From Gemmatimonas sp. (GTDB lineage: Bacteria; Gemmatimonadota; Gemmatimonadetes; Gemmatimonadales; Gemmatimonadaceae), in NCBI GenBank assembly GCA_031414535.1, contig JANNVQ010000054.1, positions 64,001-128,000 of the forward strand: 64,000 bases of DNA. The letters are read 5' to 3'. Below are positions 109-7,007 of this stretch, piece by piece (position 1 is the stretch's first letter; each line of letters begins with the position of its first letter). Position numbers and translations under genes: made by a program. The notes under the pieces are model-generated. The model did no database searches. It was given only the letters and a program-made list of their open reading frames with translations, and had not been told where the DNA came from.

Positions 109-1278
109 GTGCCCCCCAAGTCGCCCATCTACCTCGACCACGCTGCCACCACCCCGGTTCGCCCGGAGGTGATGGAGGCGATGATTCCCTTTTTCGGTCC
201 GCGGTTCGGGAATCCGTCGTCCACGCATCGTTGGGGTCGTGAAGCGCGCGCCGCGCTGGATGAAGCCCGCGAACGCGTGGCCCGCTGCTTCAACGCGGCG
301 CCGGACGAGATATGCTTCACTTCCGGTGGCACCGAAGGCGACAACCTCGCCGTGCTCGGCGGCTGGCGCATTCTCAAGGAGCAGGGCAAGAAGGCCGTTG
401 TCACGAGCCCGATTGAACACAAAGCCGTGTTGCAGGCCGTGCACCAGGCCGCCAAGGAAGGCGCTGAGGAGCGCATGCTCTCCGTCCAGCGCAACGGCAT
501 GGTGGATATGACCGACGCGCGCTCAAAGATCACGAGCGGCGACACGGCCCTCGTCTCCGTCATGTGGGTCAACAACGAGACGGGCGTCATTCAGCCTATT
601 GAAGCGCTCGCGGCCTTGACCAAGGCGGCTGGCGCGGTCTTCCACACGGATGCCGTGCAGGCCTTTGGCAAAGTCGAAGTGAACGCCAAGACTGTGCCAT
701 TTGATTTTGTGGCTCTGAGCGGTCACAAGCTTGGTGCGCCCAAAGGAATCGGCGCATTCTTCATTCGCCGCGGCACGCCGCTGGAGCCGCTGTTCTTTGG
801 CGGCACGCAGGATCGCGGCCGTCGGCCTGGCACCGAGAACGTCGCAGCAGCTGTTGGGCTCGCCCGAGCGATGGAGCTCGCGCTCGAGGAACGTGAATCG
901 CACTGGACCATGCTTGCGGCCATGCGGGATCAGCTCGAGGCGCGGCTTCTGGAGCGCATCCCTGACGCGGTGATTCACGGCCGTGACGCGAAGCGTGCGC
1001 CGCACGTGCTGAATATCTCCGTGCCGGGAACGGACTCGGAATCAATGCTCATGGCGCTCGACCTGCAGGGCGTCGCGGCGTCGAGTGGGTCGGCCTGTCA
1101 GAGTGGAAGCGTGGCGCCTTCGCACGTGCTGGCCGCGATGGGCGTGCGCGCGGACATCGCGAATGCCGCGATTCGGATGTCGTTCGGTGCGCTGAGTACG
1201 CCGGACGATGTGGACCGCGTGGCGGAGCTGTTCCCGGCCTTGATTGCCAAGGCGCGCGGGTTGAGCGGGGTCGCGTGA
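109..1278 (+). CDS. iscS: Cysteine desulfurase (IscS/NifS family)
   Basis: IYLDHAATTP, FTSGGTEGDN, HTDAVQ, SGHKLGAPKG (PLP lysine), SSGSAC catalytic Cys; GTG 109 chosen as start, close to the YLD motif. Confidence 0.93.
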   Translation: MPPKSPIYLDHAATTPVRPEVMEAMIPFFGPRFGNPSSTHRWGREARAALDEARERVARCFNAAPDEICFTSGGTEGDNLAVLGGWRILKEQGKKAVVTSPIEHKAVLQAVHQAAKEGAEERMLSVQRNGMVDMTDARSKITSGDTALVSVMWVNNETGVIQPIEALAALTKAAGAVFHTDAVQAFGKVEVNAKTVPFDFVALSGHKLGAPKGIGAFFIRRGTPLEPLFFGGTQDRGRRPGTENVAAAVGLARAMELALEERESHWTMLAAMRDQLEARLLERIPDAVIHGRDAKRAPHVLNISVPGTDSESMLMALDLQGVAASSGSACQSGSVAPSHVLAAMGVRADIANAAIRMSFGALSTPDDVDRVAELFPALIAKARGLSGVA

Positions 1279-1288
1279 CGTCACACTA

Positions 1289-1317
1289 TTGACAACGACG
1301 AAACTGTACCTTAGCCT
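1289..1317 (+). promoter_or_regulatory. sigma70-type promoter for the rtcB leader
   Basis: TTGACA (1289-1294), 17-nt spacer, TAGCCT (1312-1317); predicted start near 1324. Confidence 0.7.
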
Positions 1318-1420
1318 TCCCTTCGCTTGGGAGTCGCGTCCCGCACGAACGGTTGTCCCCTGTGGACTTCCTGCCGTCACTGACGCGACTCCTTTTTCTT
1401 TGCCCCTCAGGTATCCGACC

Positions 1421-1570
1421 ATGACTGTCCAACGCCAATTCCGCCGCGCAGCTCTCGCGAGCCCGATGATTGACATCATCGGACGCTTGGACGCGCGCGC
1501 GTTTGCGCCAGTCAATCTCACTCCGAAGACCAACACCGCAGGCGACAGAGGAATCCGCGAGCAGACCTAA
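1421..1570 (+). CDS. Putative 49-aa leader peptide
   Basis: ATG 1421 to TAA 1570 (MTVQRQFRRAALASPMIDIIG...EQT), ending 30 nt before a terminator hairpin; weak RBS, no recognisable family. Confidence 0.35.
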   Translation: MTVQRQFRRAALASPMIDIIGRLDARAFAPVNLTPKTNTAGDRGIREQT

Positions 1571-1600
1571 TGCTCAAGGCCCTCTTGGGTTAGCACCACC

Positions 1601-1641
1601 ACCCCGCCTGCGCTTCCCGAGCCAGGCGGGGTTTCTGTTTC
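1601..1641 (+). terminator. Intrinsic terminator / attenuator inside the rtcB leader
   Basis: Perfect 10-bp stem ACCCCGCCTG/CAGGCGGGGT followed by TTCTGTTTC. Confidence 0.65.
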
Positions 1642-1819
1642 CTGGCAATACAAGACGGCGTTGCGGATCTCCTCGCAGCGAATGAACGGGTGAAAGGCAC
1701 GCGACTCCCAACACTCGGCTCATTCACCACAGCGTCGGCAACTCCCTCGGGGCGCTCGCGGCGCGCTCGGCCTCGCCTCGAGGGAGAGGCATTCACATTT
1801 CTGAAGTGAGCAGTGACCA

Positions 1820-3031
1820 ATGAAAATCTTTGGACAGCACGACGAAAAGACCCTGATCCAGTTCGAATCCGTGCGCGAACGTGCAGTGGACGCCGCCCTC
1901 ATGGCCGACGGTCACGTGGGCTATGTCATGCCGATTGGTGGCGTGGCGGCGTATCGCAACCAGGTATCGGTGGTGGGCGTCGGCTTCGACATCGCCTGCG
2001 GAAACGCCGCGATTCGCACAGACCTCACGCTGCAGTCGCTGGGTGGCACGGCGGAAGCGCAGCACGTGGCCCTGCTTTCGTTCGCCGACGAGATTGCGGA
2101 TGTGGTGAGCTTCGGCGTCGGCCGGAAGAATCGCGCCGACGATGCGCCCGTGGACCATGAGCTCTTTGCTGCGAGCGAGTGGGATGCGGTCCCAGCGTCG
2201 CACCGCGAGGCGCTGCGGAACAAGGCGCGTATCCAGCTCGGCACCGTGGGAAGCGGCAACCACTATGTGGACGTGTTCGAGGACGAAACCGGTCACCTCT
2301 GGGTCGGCGTGCACTTCGGCAGCCGTGGCTTTGGGCACACCGTGGCCTCAGGGTTCCTCGCGCTCAGCCAGGGCGAGGCCTGGGATACCCGCGTGCGGGA
2401 GATCGAAGTGCTTTTGGATCTCGCCGAGCCCACGGGACACGACTACTGGCACCTGATGTCTCTCGCCGGCCGCTACGCTTACGCGGGCCGTGAGTGGGTG
2501 GCTCGGAAAGTGGTCAGCATCATCGGCGGCACGGAACTGGAGCTCGTACATAACCATCACAACTTCGCGTGGAAGGAAGAACACCACGGCGAGGAACTCG
2601 TGGTGATTCGGAAGGGTGCCACGCCGGCCTTTCCGGGGCAGCTGGGCTTCATTGGCGGATCGATGGGCGATGACGCCGTGATTGTGCGCGGTACCGCAAG
2701 CACCGCCTCGCAGGTGCAAGAGACTCAGCGCGACGCGCTCTACTCCACCGTCCATGGTGCGGGCCGTGTAATGTCACGCACGCGGGCTGCCGGTGGCCGC
2801 AAGGGCAAGCAGCGATTTCGGGGCGAGATTTCCGAAGGCATGATGGAGAAGTGGGTGCGGGAGAAGGGCGTGATCCTCCGTGGCGGCGGTGTGGACGAGA
2901 GTCCGCATGTGTACCGCCGGCTCCCGGACGTACTCGCCGCGCAGGGCGAGACGGTAGAAGTCCTGCACACCCTGCGGCCGCTGGTGGTCGTGATGGCGGG
3001 CGCCAACGAGTTTGACCCGTACAAGGACTGA
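1820..3031 (+). CDS. rtcB: RNA ligase RtcB (3'-phosphate/5'-OH)
   Basis: MADGHVGYVMPIGG, VGFDIACGN, GTVGSGNHY, VHFGSRG, NHHN, RKGAT and HGAGR motifs. Confidence 0.93.
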   Translation: MKIFGQHDEKTLIQFESVRERAVDAALMADGHVGYVMPIGGVAAYRNQVSVVGVGFDIACGNAAIRTDLTLQSLGGTAEAQHVALLSFADEIADVVSFGVGRKNRADDAPVDHELFAASEWDAVPASHREALRNKARIQLGTVGSGNHYVDVFEDETGHLWVGVHFGSRGFGHTVASGFLALSQGEAWDTRVREIEVLLDLAEPTGHDYWHLMSLAGRYAYAGREWVARKVVSIIGGTELELVHNHHNFAWKEEHHGEELVVIRKGATPAFPGQLGFIGGSMGDDAVIVRGTASTASQVQETQRDALYSTVHGAGRVMSRTRAAGGRKGKQRFRGEISEGMMEKWVREKGVILRGGGVDESPHVYRRLPDVLAAQGETVEVLHTLRPLVVVMAGANEFDPYKD

Positions 3032-3052
3032 CTCGCTCGGTATATTCCATCT

Positions 3053-4168
3053 GTGTCCTCACCGGCCAAGAACACCCGCCCCCGAGTCCTCGCCGCCATG
3101 TCTGGCGGCGTGGACTCTTCGGTTGCCGCCGCACTCCTTGTGCGGGAAGGCTACGACGTCGTGGGCGTCACCATGAAGCTGTTCAAGGATGGCGGCGACC
3201 TTCCCGACCGCCCCTGCTGTTCGCTCGATTCCGTGAACGATGCGCGGCGCGTCTGCGAGTCCTTGGGCATTCCGCACTACGTGTTGAATCTCCAGGACGC
3301 GTTCGGTCGCGACGTCGTCAGTGATTTCGTGGCGGAGTATGCGGCAGGTCGCACGCCCATTCCTTGCGTGCGCTGCAACACCTTCACCAAGTTCCGAGAC
3401 CTGCTCGCCAAGGCCGACGCCATTGATGCGCCGTGGATTGCTACAGGCCATTACGCGCGCGTGGCCGACGGCCGTCTGCAGCGCGGCGTGGATGACAACA
3501 AAGACCAGACATACTTCCTCTGGGGCATCGAGCGTGAGGTACTCTCGCGCATGATTCTGCCCGTGGGCGGTCTGACCAAGCCGGAAACACGTGCCGTTGC
3601 TCGCGAACTCGGCCTCCTCACTGCCGAGAAGCCCGAGAGCCACGAGATTTGCTTTGTCCCCGATGGTGATTATGTGAAGGTCCTCGAGCGCGAACTCCCG
3701 CCTGATGCGCCTGCGCTTACGCCTGGACCCATTGTCACGATGGATGGGACAGTGGTCGGCACGCACGAAGGTTTCGCGCGCTTCACCATTGGCCAGCGCC
3801 GTCGGCTGCCCGGTGGCTCGAGCGAGCCAATGTTCGTGGTCGCCTTGCGCCCCGAAGATCGGGCCGTGGTGATTGGGCCGCGGGAGGCCCTGCTCGGACG
3901 CGGCCTCGTCGCCAACGAGGCGAACTGGCTCGTGGACCGCATCCCCGACGAGGGCAGCACGGTGCTGGTCCGCATTCGTCATCGCGCGACACCGGTGGCG
4001 GCCACGCTTCTGCTTGCAACGCCTGAGCGATTCGAAGTCCTGTTGCACGAACCCGCGTACGCGATCGCACCTGGCCAGAGCGTTGTGCTCTATGATGCCG
4101 ATGCGATTGTACTCGGCGGCGGCATCATCAGCGCCAGCCGTCGGGTATTGCCGGTTCGCGCGGCCTGA
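3053..4168 (+). CDS. mnmA: tRNA 2-thiouridine(34) synthase MnmA
   Basis: AMSGGVDSSVAA PP-loop, TPIPCVRCN, ATGHYA, KDQTYFL, ESHEICF, FTIGQRR, APGQSVVLY. Confidence 0.95.
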   Translation: MSSPAKNTRPRVLAAMSGGVDSSVAAALLVREGYDVVGVTMKLFKDGGDLPDRPCCSLDSVNDARRVCESLGIPHYVLNLQDAFGRDVVSDFVAEYAAGRTPIPCVRCNTFTKFRDLLAKADAIDAPWIATGHYARVADGRLQRGVDDNKDQTYFLWGIEREVLSRMILPVGGLTKPETRAVARELGLLTAEKPESHEICFVPDGDYVKVLERELPPDAPALTPGPIVTMDGTVVGTHEGFARFTIGQRRRLPGGSSEPMFVVALRPEDRAVVIGPREALLGRGLVANEANWLVDRIPDEGSTVLVRIRHRATPVAATLLLATPERFEVLLHEPAYAIAPGQSVVLYDADAIVLGGGIISASRRVLPVRAA

Positions 4169-5478: not shown

Positions 5479-6153
5479 ATGAGATTCCTCAGCTGGATTT
5501 ATGACGCACTTGCCGTCATTGGGGCATCGGCTATTGGGCTGTTGATTGTTGCCGTCGCTGCGGACTTTGCTCAGCAGTGGTATTGGAGAACATTCCGCGA
5601 AGATCGAGGCGCTTCAGTTTCGGTCGCGCAGACTACGCCAGCAGCGACACGATCTGCTCGGACTTCATCAGCGGTGAGCCCACCTGCGGCAACCGCACCC
5701 GTGGCGACTCCCGTGGAGTCAACTCCACCCGCGGCGACTCCCGTTGCGACGAAGCCCGAGCTTCCGCCGTCTTCTGGGGTGCCGTGGGGACTGGAGGTCG
5801 CAGAACCAAACGGGCGCATTCTGTCCCCAGATCTCCGGCTGAGAATCACCGTGGAGGGACGTACGCAACCGGGTTCCAGCAACGCTTGGGTCGAGACTCA
5901 CTCCCGGAATCTCTACCTGCTCGTTTCGCAGGACTCCACTTTGCTTTCGCGACCGCCGCGCGGCACACGGTGGGCCCTGCGGCTCACTGGCAATCGTAGT
6001 ACTGGCATTCTCACGTATAGGCGAGCAGACGGTGAACGGTTTGCGTACGTTCGTTTGTGTCGCTTCCCGGATGATCACAACCGTTACGTGACGACGCTGC
6101 CGAGCATCTCGGCGGATTCCGCACGCATCGAGCGGAGAGTACAGTGCCACTAG
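5479..6153 (+). CDS. Hypothetical membrane-anchored protein
   Basis: N-terminal hydrophobic helix, PAAT/PVAT-rich linker, C-terminal globular region; overlaps next start. Confidence 0.6.
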   Translation: MRFLSWIYDALAVIGASAIGLLIVAVAADFAQQWYWRTFREDRGASVSVAQTTPAATRSARTSSAVSPPAATAPVATPVESTPPAATPVATKPELPPSSGVPWGLEVAEPNGRILSPDLRLRITVEGRTQPGSSNAWVETHSRNLYLLVSQDSTLLSRPPRGTRWALRLTGNRSTGILTYRRADGERFAYVRLCRFPDDHNRYVTTLPSISADSARIERRVQCH

Positions 6154-6563
6154 CCAAGTTCATCGCCGCCCTGGTCGGCTTGTTGGTCGTGCTCAGTATG
6201 ATCGTGCGCCCCGCTCCGAACACACGCGAGAAGATTTATTTCGCCGCGATGAAGGGAGACCTGCGCAATCTGATCACCGCCCAAGAAGCGTTCTTCTCTG
6301 ACAGCGCGCGCTATGCAATCTCGCTCCAAGAGCTTGGTGACTCCACCCGCTTCTGGACAACGCCGGGAGTGACGGTGTCCATCACAGAAGCCACCGACCG
6401 CCTTTTTAGGGCGCGCGCGCGGCATTCCGATCTCACCCCGCCTGGTGGATGCGAAATCGCCGCTGGCTTTGAGAAGGAGATGGGAGACATTCCCGACAAC
6501 GGAGAGCCCATCTGCAAACCCGATCGGAAGCGGAGAAGCTGGATCTTCGTCTGGGAGCTGTGA
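6144..6563 (+). CDS. Type IV pilin-like protein lacking prepilin cleavage motif
   Basis: Hydrophobic N-terminus then NTREKIYFAAMKGDLRNLITAQEAFFSDSARY (pilin alpha1-C-like); two C-terminal Cys. Confidence 0.65.
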   Translation: MPLAKFIAALVGLLVVLSMIVRPAPNTREKIYFAAMKGDLRNLITAQEAFFSDSARYAISLQELGDSTRFWTTPGVTVSITEATDRLFRARARHSDLTPPGGCEIAAGFEKEMGDIPDNGEPICKPDRKRRSWIFVWEL

Positions 6564-6593: not shown

Positions 6594-7007
6594 ATGCCAG
6601 TCGCCAAATTCCTCTTCGCCATTGTAGGCGCACTCTTCATTGCGGCGCTGCTCATCAAGCCCGCCCACCAATCTCCAAAGCTGGGATCGGCTTACGCGTC
6701 AATGAAAGCCGATCTGCGGAATCTCGTATTGGCGCAGGACGCTTTCCATGAAGACAGCGCCCGTTACGCCAGCTCACAGCGAGAACTCAGCGACGCACGA
6801 TACCAGACGTCATCCGGCGTATCCGTCGAGATCACCTCGGGCAGCGACAGTGCGTGGGCGGCCATTGCGACGAACAGCATCGATCCGAAGTACCGCTGCC
6901 GCATCGCGGTGTCTATCGCCCACAGCGAGGAGCCCCTAGTGAACGATTCGGAGCCCATCTGCCATCCCGAGTTTCGATCTGGAGGCTGGCGCTGGGTCTG
7001 GCAGTAG
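6594..7007 (+). CDS. Type IV pilin-like protein, paralog of 6144-6563
   Basis: MPVAKFL.. start, AYASMKADLRNLVLAQDAFHEDSARYA, two C-terminal Cys, EPICHP. Confidence 0.65.
   Translation: MPVAKFLFAIVGALFIAALLIKPAHQSPKLGSAYASMKADLRNLVLAQDAFHEDSARYASSQRELSDARYQTSSGVSVEITSGSDSAWAAIATNSIDPKYRCRIAVSIAHSEEPLVNDSEPICHPEFRSGGWRWVWQ

Follow-up and report, generated by a model that had tools for sequence, protein, structure and literature searches.

Many bacteria have the RNA ligase RtcB without the regulator RtcR, and how they sense RNA damage is the question raised by the locus described here. It lies in a 64,000-nt stretch of a Gemmatimonas sp. genome (contig JANNVQ010000054.1, positions 64,001 to 128,000; the window), where iscS (ending at position 1278) is followed, on the forward strand, by a long leader, rtcB (1820 to 3031), and mnmA. 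The rtcB gene encodes 403 amino acids (PF01139, E value of 8.8e-61) and is the single match in the window's genome (G000). Neither RtcR (PF06956) nor RtcA (PF01137) was found in this genome, which is 98% complete, and no sigma54-type pattern was found within positions 1200 to 1830, as an original prediction made from the sequence alone had noted for the locus. That prediction proposed that an RNA attenuator coupled to an upstream open reading frame (uORF) controls rtcB. Comparison with related genomes indicates that the leader is a conserved RNA element preceding RNA-repair operons of Gemmatimonadota, and control in this one phylum may depend on a uORF that gauges translation independently of its sequence.

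Architecture of the leader

All of the features listed in the original prediction are present in the sequence at the positions given. A sigma70-type promoter (1289 to 1317) consists of TTGACA (1289 to 1294) and TAGCCT (1312 to 1317) separated by a 17-nt spacer, and transcription would start at about 1324 to 1328. It is followed by the U-tailed hairpin T1 (1329 to 1401), whose arms (1330 to 1340 and 1382 to 1392) enclose 41 nt of variable sequence and precede a U-rich run (1393 to 1401; fold z score of -4.7 for 1325 to 1405). The near-invariant 5′ strand of T1 is referred to here as motif A (1329 to 1342) and its partner strand as A′ (1382 to 1392). The 49-codon uORF (1421 to 1570) and T2 (1601 to 1640) come next, the latter being an intrinsic-terminator-like hairpin with arms at 1601 to 1610 and 1623 to 1632 and a U-rich tail reaching 1640 (z score of -4.4 for 1598 to 1645). 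A consensus scan called T2 only; the promoter, whose -10 box matches at 3 of 6 positions, and T1 were not called. The whole leader folds better than shuffles (z score of -3.2), and no Rfam 15 covariance model matched positions 1279 to 1819 at E values up to 5, in line with the view that it is not a named RNA family. A repeat search revealed two pairings that the original prediction had missed, namely, positions 1327 to 1342 with 1696 to 1711 and positions 1537 to 1544 with 1605 to 1612.

The remaining predicted structures were upheld in part. The multi-stem domain downstream of T2, here called the B domain (1655 to 1737), is present and is kept in relatives, but its fold is no better than chance (z score of -0.3 for 1650 to 1740). 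It has a long stem and an apical loop (1693 to 1711) with a core complementary to A (1699 to 1709). The small hairpin placed after the uORF stop (1571 to 1595) can likewise be drawn, but it scores poorly (z score of -1.1 for 1571 to 1600), and relatives tend to favor a predicted, weakly supported hairpin at 1559 to 1575 that carries the stop codon in its loop and has 57.6% of its cells paired in a 48-sequence alignment.

The 13-bp hairpin H (1742 to 1786, with arms at 1742 to 1754 and 1774 to 1786; z score of -2.5 for 1738 to 1822) and the AGGGAG run in it (1781 to 1786) are real, but the proposal that H hides a Shine-Dalgarno sequence did not hold. AGGGAG is unlikely to be the Shine-Dalgarno sequence of rtcB because it lies 33 nt before the ATG and is followed by an in-frame TGA (1814 to 1816). 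The H motif is lineage restricted, occurring in 13 of 91 elements, and lies from 63 to more than 300 nt before the next called gene. Given the placement of AGGGAG, the rarity of H, and its variable distance to the gene, sequestration was rejected and H is not regarded as a translation gate; it is probably a stability or processing element.

The gene neighborhood varies within the genus. iscS directly adjoins mnmA in three of five same-genus genomes (L611, L612, and L613 versus L609 and L610), and in the window (118 to 4168), the leader and rtcB lie between the two. The two closest mnmA genes (85 to 86%) also lack an upstream iscS, and they share with the window a TATATT/TATTT box just 5′ of the mnmA start (near 3041); from these two observations, mnmA probably has its own leaderless promoter. 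Farther downstream, two tandem, similar ORFs of approximately 138 aa (6144 to 6563 and 6594 to 7007) carry an MK.DLRNL motif in addition to a hydrophobic N-terminal segment, and the first has no Pfam match. ARAGORN found no tRNA or tmRNA in the window.

Distribution of the leader

Motif A was detected in 122 of 401 family genomes, compared to 11 matches for a reversed control. A GTDB scan for the promoter and motif A together gave at least 120 matches; among the 80 matches listed, 78 were in Gemmatimonadota and one was in a Kofleriaceae bin. Four same-genus rtcB orthologues found by protein search (77 to 80% identity) keep the promoter, A, T1, the uORF, T2, and loop B, although the genes upstream of them differ. 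The promoter pattern was found at the same spacing in all four and in 157 of 187 motif A elements, a count in which the GTDB matches carry the promoter by construction. Some genome tallies include two unpublished genomes (G094 and G354), and no claim depends on those two alone.

The leader was not found within 1.5 kb of six rtcB orthologues from other families, nor was it seen within the examined 1.2 to 1.5 kb of most rtcB genes of the clade, although in some it lies farther upstream. No further copy was found in the window's genome. In IMG/VR, 14 exact matches to the 16-nt A pattern were found, none with the promoter-T1 layout. Rfam searches of two sets of related loci (20 and 8) yielded tRNA-type matches only and nothing for the leader. 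A literature search, which covered mainly open-access papers, found no description of the A/T1-B motif, and the main text of a survey of novel noncoding RNAs in 50 genomes (PMC11109978) mentions neither Gemmatimon nor rtcB.

Genes and elements downstream of the leader

The leader was predicted to control rtcB. It does head rtcB, but many RNA-repair operons are headed by it, not rtcB alone: it precedes rtcB, Ro60, hen1-pnkp, and tRNA arrays. Among the same-strand genes within 5.2 kb of 187 distinct elements (ORFs from a codon model), rtcB was found at 54 elements, a 106-aa protein at 51, and Ro60 at 42, followed by Hen1 (11), Usp (7), Pnkp (6), DksA/TraR (6), HNH (4), and RlaP (2). No regulator gene and no recombinase recurred among these neighbors. 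tRNA-like genes were located 3′ of B in 32 of 88 elements.

Several of these neighbors have features of their own. The tRNA-like arrays 3′ of B contain up to 10 genes (L291, L294, L307, L321, and L005:1836-1908), most often Arg(ACG), His(GTG), and Asp(GTC). The 106-aa protein (L210:5738-6055 and 50 other loci) is always encoded on the leader strand, near rtcB or Ro60; it has no match to Pfam, NCBIfam, or a named Atlas family, its Atlas clusters are mostly from Gemmatimonadota, and it is absent from the window's locus. In four loci (L040, L044, L048, and L073), a tRNA-like element, in which D and T arms are recognizable and a long branched insert replaces the anticodon arm, lies between the H hairpin and rtcB; in L040 and L073, it had no Rfam match at the gathering score. 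A leader subclass (L138, L193, L258, L283, L295, L298, and L318) precedes usp, dksA/traR, a CdiI-like gene, and a 158-aa gene. Its uORFs show partial mutual similarity (e.g., TRVS), and its B loops are often C-to-U variants or lost. In L148 (3780 to 4265) and L156, the gene after the leader encodes a short protein that aligns with just a portion of EF-Ts (PF00889). Finally, 29 of 87 leaders (e.g., L143, L159, L170, and L275) carry a GCTGTTTGACAA-type motif in the stretch from T2 to B, and the motif recurs 5′ of the 16S and 23S genes of three relatives (flanks L569 to L576). It is likely a boxA, which would add Nus antitermination over the noncoding stretch; it is absent from the window.

A probable uORF-coupled attenuator at T2

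Seventy-two elements matching a strict T2 pattern were analyzed, and the T2 of the window was examined separately. An ATG ORF ends 0 to 70 nt before T2 in 70 of the 72 elements. The stop codon falls 25 to 48 nt before T2 in 67, compared to a mean of 6.5 and a maximum of 15 in shuffles. The position of the uORF is thus kept across the family and its peptide is not: the peptides are unrelated and range from 37 to 134 codons, and that of the window has no Pfam match. Control codons of the trp/ilv type were not seen, as the uORFs are rich in R, G, A, and S with no single control residue. An approximate probe found a strong Shine-Dalgarno sequence at only 5 of 70 uORFs, a weak signal that counts against the attenuator proposed below.

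Inside the uORF, approximately 30 nt 5′ of its stop codon, lies an antiterminator strand (1537 to 1544) whose partner (1605 to 1612) is in T2. In the window, the two pair in the nascent fold and separate once T2 is complete. Across the family, the pairing exceeds 0.5 in 59 of 70 nascent folds and averages 0.03 in full folds. Pairing with the T2 5′ strand peaks 35 to 25 nt before the uORF stop (-11.2 kcal/mol, versus about -6 kcal/mol elsewhere) and is stronger between strands of the same element than between swapped ones (-14.3 versus -13.1; 0/200). When the window was aligned with 47 of the 66 listed regions (48 sequences in all), T2 was paired in 99.4% of cells and the antiterminator helix in 88.9%, the latter with 13 double-change cells versus 3.4 expected (0/500), although kinship inflates double-change counts. 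The antiterminator motif falls in all three reading frames, and the constraint is therefore on the RNA.

Related leaders had been named as the check on the original attenuator proposal. They agree with it, in that the leader is kept and the antiterminator exists and covaries with T2. A uORF at a fixed distance before a terminator, with an antiterminator that overlaps the uORF and is mutually exclusive with the terminator, is the arrangement of a known attenuator type. T2 is therefore very probably a ribosome-sensing, uORF-coupled attenuator (gate 2) like PA5471.1-armZ; termination at T2, translation of the uORF, and the nature of the stress signal are what we infer from this arrangement.

To avoid selecting on A, loci were also collected through the T2 sequence, yielding 138 T2 matches with a U tail, 89 of which had enough upstream DNA. 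Motif A was exact in 54 of the 89 and had at least three mismatches in 29 (e.g., L425, L426, L539 to L542, L547, L557, and L057). Several of the latter have a promoter 200 to 300 nt upstream. Because these 29 loci are without A or B, the uORF-T2 attenuator also occurs alone.

T1 and its complement in loop B

The partner strand and U-rich tail of T1 were found in 153 of 161 elements, with A′ often pairing with A through G-U, and the upper-stem arms pair better with their own partners than with swapped ones (-13.5 versus -11.6 kcal/mol; 0/60). The family mostly has 5 to 6 U in 8 nt. With its 41-nt interior and this U content, T1 is a candidate first terminator of an atypical kind. In the nascent RNA, before A′ is made, motif A is predicted to form a mini-hairpin of 4 to 5 bp.

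The B loop is complementary to positions 1327 to 1342 at 15 of 16 positions. Its core is exact in 126 of 174 elements and within one mismatch in 148; in 18 elements, no B within two mismatches was found in cis. Among the T2-anchored loci, B within one mismatch accompanies 46 of 52 exact A motifs and 0 of 24 loci without A, so the two are acquired or lost as a pair. When 43 B domains were aligned with MAFFT, RNAalifold gave no consensus structure because the alignment was poor, and arm-swap tests were used instead. Arms of the same element pair far better than arms swapped at 35% identity (-35.7 versus -26.0; 0/60; 67 nonredundant of 97 elements). The core has a mean unpaired probability of 0.64, compared to 0.27 for its flanks, and when it was forced open, an apical loop of about 18 nt formed in 67 of 67 domains at a median cost of 4.6 kcal/mol.

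In 92 of 93 elements, B is the stronger partner of A (-23.6 kcal/mol, versus -17.2 kcal/mol for A′). In a cofold model that ignores kinetics and loop topology, the median gain for B is -10.1 kcal/mol when the 5′ RNA is nascent (below -5 kcal/mol in 76 of 93) and -1.1 kcal/mol when T1 is finished (below -5 kcal/mol in 11 of 93). By computation, then, B is an accessible RNA complementary to the 5′ stem of T1 that binds the nascent target. Of the 22 B-core substitutions that passed the stem-loop filter, 14 are C-to-U changes that leave a G-U pair with A in place; G-to-A changes are absent. This bias is a weak sign in favor of pairing with A, given that C makes up 6 of the 11 core letters, that C-to-T changes are common, and that the filter dropped one G-to-A variant (L135). 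Because A is almost invariant, no compensatory A-B change exists, and this constancy points to a further constraint on A, for example, a protein. Complementarity between the flanks of A and B is not above that of shuffles (0.54 versus 0.44; 137/2000).

Other partners for A were sought in the host. No tRNA of the window's genome passed the test, and its rRNA was not found with three probes; the rRNAs of three relatives share at most 7 identical nt with the complement of A, and the best loose duplex of A with one 23S rRNA was -28.8 kcal/mol, so a host RNA partner is improbable but conceivable. Within the window's genome, B is the sole site of the 11-nt complement of A, and a search of five genomes for the wobble pattern gave counts at the background level.

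In six loci (L036, L140, L157, L212, L327, and L328), T1 precedes a gene without a uORF, T2, or B. All six lie in genomes that have a second locus with A and the B stem-loop (G455 with a B core variant), although the six loci represent about four lineages and are not independent. Two further genomes (G672 and G417) each have one B-less and one B-bearing locus. Exceptions were also found: G132 (98% complete), G183 (99%), G671, and G673 have A and T1, and no B domain was found in them; G670 has only a G-to-A variant of B; and in G388, A is present but neither the promoter pattern nor B is. The G673 locus (L200) has a reduced leader in which T2 and a tRNA-like gene come directly after T1, and the uORF and B are absent.

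A proposed two-gate model

These observations can be combined in a model of two gates. At gate 2, a ribosome trailing the polymerase to the uORF stop would sit between positions 1537 to 1544 and T2, so that T2 forms and transcription ends near 1640. The usual ribosome footprint does not reach approximately 30 nt from the stop codon, and blocking of the antiterminator would therefore be steric or due to trailing ribosomes. If ribosomes stalled or failed anywhere upstream, the antiterminator would pair with the T2 5′ strand and the polymerase would read through. As the peptide is irrelevant, the uORF would gauge translation in general, placing the leader under a presumed translation-stress control.

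At gate 1, most transcripts would end at T1 near 1400, with few leaking through. RNA extending past T2 would carry the B stem-loop, whose open loop could pair in trans with A before A′ is made; T1 could then not form, and more transcripts would reach gate 2. T1-only operons (hen1-pnkp and some rtcB) would be turned on by the same B RNA. B lies 3′ of both gates, at least 300 nt after T1, and therefore cannot prevent T1 on its own transcript. Since it is exposed, pairs more strongly than A′, and catches A only before A′ is made, its simplest use would be on other RNAs still being transcribed. As T2 precedes B, the feedback loop would be gated by ribosome stress.

Termination at T1 and the action of B in trans are presumed from these pairings, and we give gate 1, with B acting in trans on T1, an even chance of being correct. 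The whole model, a two-gate attenuator with RNA positive feedback common to Gemmatimonadota RNA-repair operons, falls slightly below that. More tentative again is its broadest form, in which B is a self-amplifying RNA activator of an rtcB/Ro60/hen1-pnkp/tRNA regulon without a protein regulator and T1 may derive from a Y RNA.

Alternative explanations for A and B

One alternative keeps T2 as a ribosome-sensing attenuator and reads the T1 product as a small RNA resembling Y RNAs, in which the conserved 5′ strand serves as the Ro60 (Rsr) site and B is an antisense decoy or competitor. Ro60 may then feed back on T1, and in genomes without Ro60, such as that of the window, the A-B pair would be a relic or act without it. 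The outline of T1 fits this reading, as it has a long stem joining the 5′ and 3′ ends with only the 5′ strand conserved, which is how Y RNAs are described in 10.1101/312249. Xenopus Ro60 contacts a GGUCCGA (PMC4201824), to which the family consensus GUCCCGAUG is similar. Furthermore, 38 of 43 Ro60-encoding family genomes carry A, Ro60 follows 42 of 187 elements, no YrlA was found at the Rfam score in 20 loci, and 37 of 40 Ro60 operons retain a CGAU extension, versus 21 of 33 rtcB operons without Ro60. However, Ro60 was not found in the window's genome or in five relatives with the leader, where A and B are intact, and 84 of the 122 motif A-positive genomes lack it (some of these matches being due to chance). 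The YrlA motif GNCGAAN0-1G is not matched, the window having GUCCCGCAC downstream of the core. The window gave no match to any Y RNA model, the best YrlA score among relatives is 25.7 bits versus 69 and falls over a tRNA, and the cofold model does not predict that B opens a completed T1. We consider this reading unlikely as a replacement for B acting in trans, although Ro60 binding could be the cause of the invariance of A and the two readings are compatible.

B could instead act in cis after transcription, pairing back with A to alter stability, processing, or uORF initiation, with T1 being leaky. In hok-type mRNAs, the two ends of the molecule pair in such a way. B lies 330 to 700 nt after A, nearly always on the same transcript, and B-less genomes exist. 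The window itself is an exception in the family, as the minimum-energy and centroid folds of positions 1320 to 1822 pair 1327 to 1338 with B. Among 78 full-length minimum-energy folds, though, A pairs with A′ in 72 and B is preferred over A′ in only 3; such long-range pairing would come at the expense of the covarying stem that holds B in an open loop, and the T1-only operons are left unexplained. Fold-back in cis is accordingly judged improbable as the main role of B.

It is considerably less probable that A is a DNA operator (GGGA-N6-TCCC) for a repressor and B an inverted auxiliary operator. A is symmetric, lies just after the start site, and is invariant phylum-wide, and TrcR represses rtcB and a tRNA operon in Anabaena (PMC10272220). 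The evidence against an operator includes a B that keeps only 11 of 14 nt, always inverted and in an RNA loop with covarying arms, the pairing of A′ via G-U, and B variants that are mostly wobble compatible, and no regulator gene recurs among the same-strand neighbors. Finally, the 16-bp inverted repeat (1327 to 1342 and 1696 to 1711) flanks T1, the uORF, and T2 and might bound an invertible segment that flips both terminators, a proposal rejected as scarcely credible because, by eye, promoter-like DNA has the same orientation in all 54 T2-anchored loci with exact A (0 flipped), no recombinase recurs among the neighbors, and the covariation is of the RNA type.

Comparison with known systems

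The closest parallel to gate 2 is the PA5471.1 leader peptide upstream of armZ (PA5471, RtcB-like) in Pseudomonas aeruginosa, for which PMC12057347 describes a uORF and a terminator, with read-through proposed when ribosomes are impaired. Both leaders place a uORF and a downstream terminator before an RtcB-family gene. The leader described here differs in that its uORF spans 37 to 134 codons with a peptide that is not conserved, it includes a further, upstream gate (T1) together with a complementary B loop, and it serves several RNA-repair operons; the likeness is drawn from the published description of that system. Gate 2 would therefore be a fresh member of an already known attenuator type.

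Other RNA-repair systems share the genes and not the mode of control. The Salmonella rsr-yrlBA-rtcBA operon is controlled by RtcR sensing tRNA fragments (PMC7790460). In common with this operon and bacterial Y RNAs, the family has the Ro60 and RtcB set, an RNA with a conserved 5′ strand, and tRNA-like neighbors, whereas RtcR, RtcA, and Ro60 were not found in the window's genome and no Y RNA model matched. For Ro60 operons where Rfam finds no Y RNA, the T1 of the leader is a candidate. The Anabaena TrcR regulon (PMC10272220) resembles the present one in its RtcR-free control of rtcB, HNH gene, spare tRNA array, and link to translational stress, and the tRNA arrays after B recall the Anabaena stress tRNA operon; a DNA-binding repressor acts there, and an RNA leader would act here. 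A further point of contact is rRNA boxA/NusB-S10 antitermination (PMC13753749): the boxA-like motif occurs in the 29 of 87 elements noted above, and a role for NusB is putative.

For gate 1, the comparison is with small transcription-activating RNAs (STARs), engineered RNAs that bind the 5′ stem of a nascent terminator in trans and block its formation (PMC5648800 and 10.1101/022772). The 2015 preprint (10.1101/022772) states that no natural small RNA transcription activators were known then. Natural RNA antitermination is nevertheless not unheard of, since a 2019 review (PMC6524683) describes antisense RNAs that can induce antiterminators and small RNAs that counter Rho termination. The A/T1-B pair itself is apparently new, being absent from Rfam 15 and the literature searched. 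B differs from STARs in being natural, presented in a loop, and encoded downstream of its own target. If B acts as predicted, it would be a natural counterpart of synthetic STARs and part of an all-RNA feedback circuit that coordinates separate operons.
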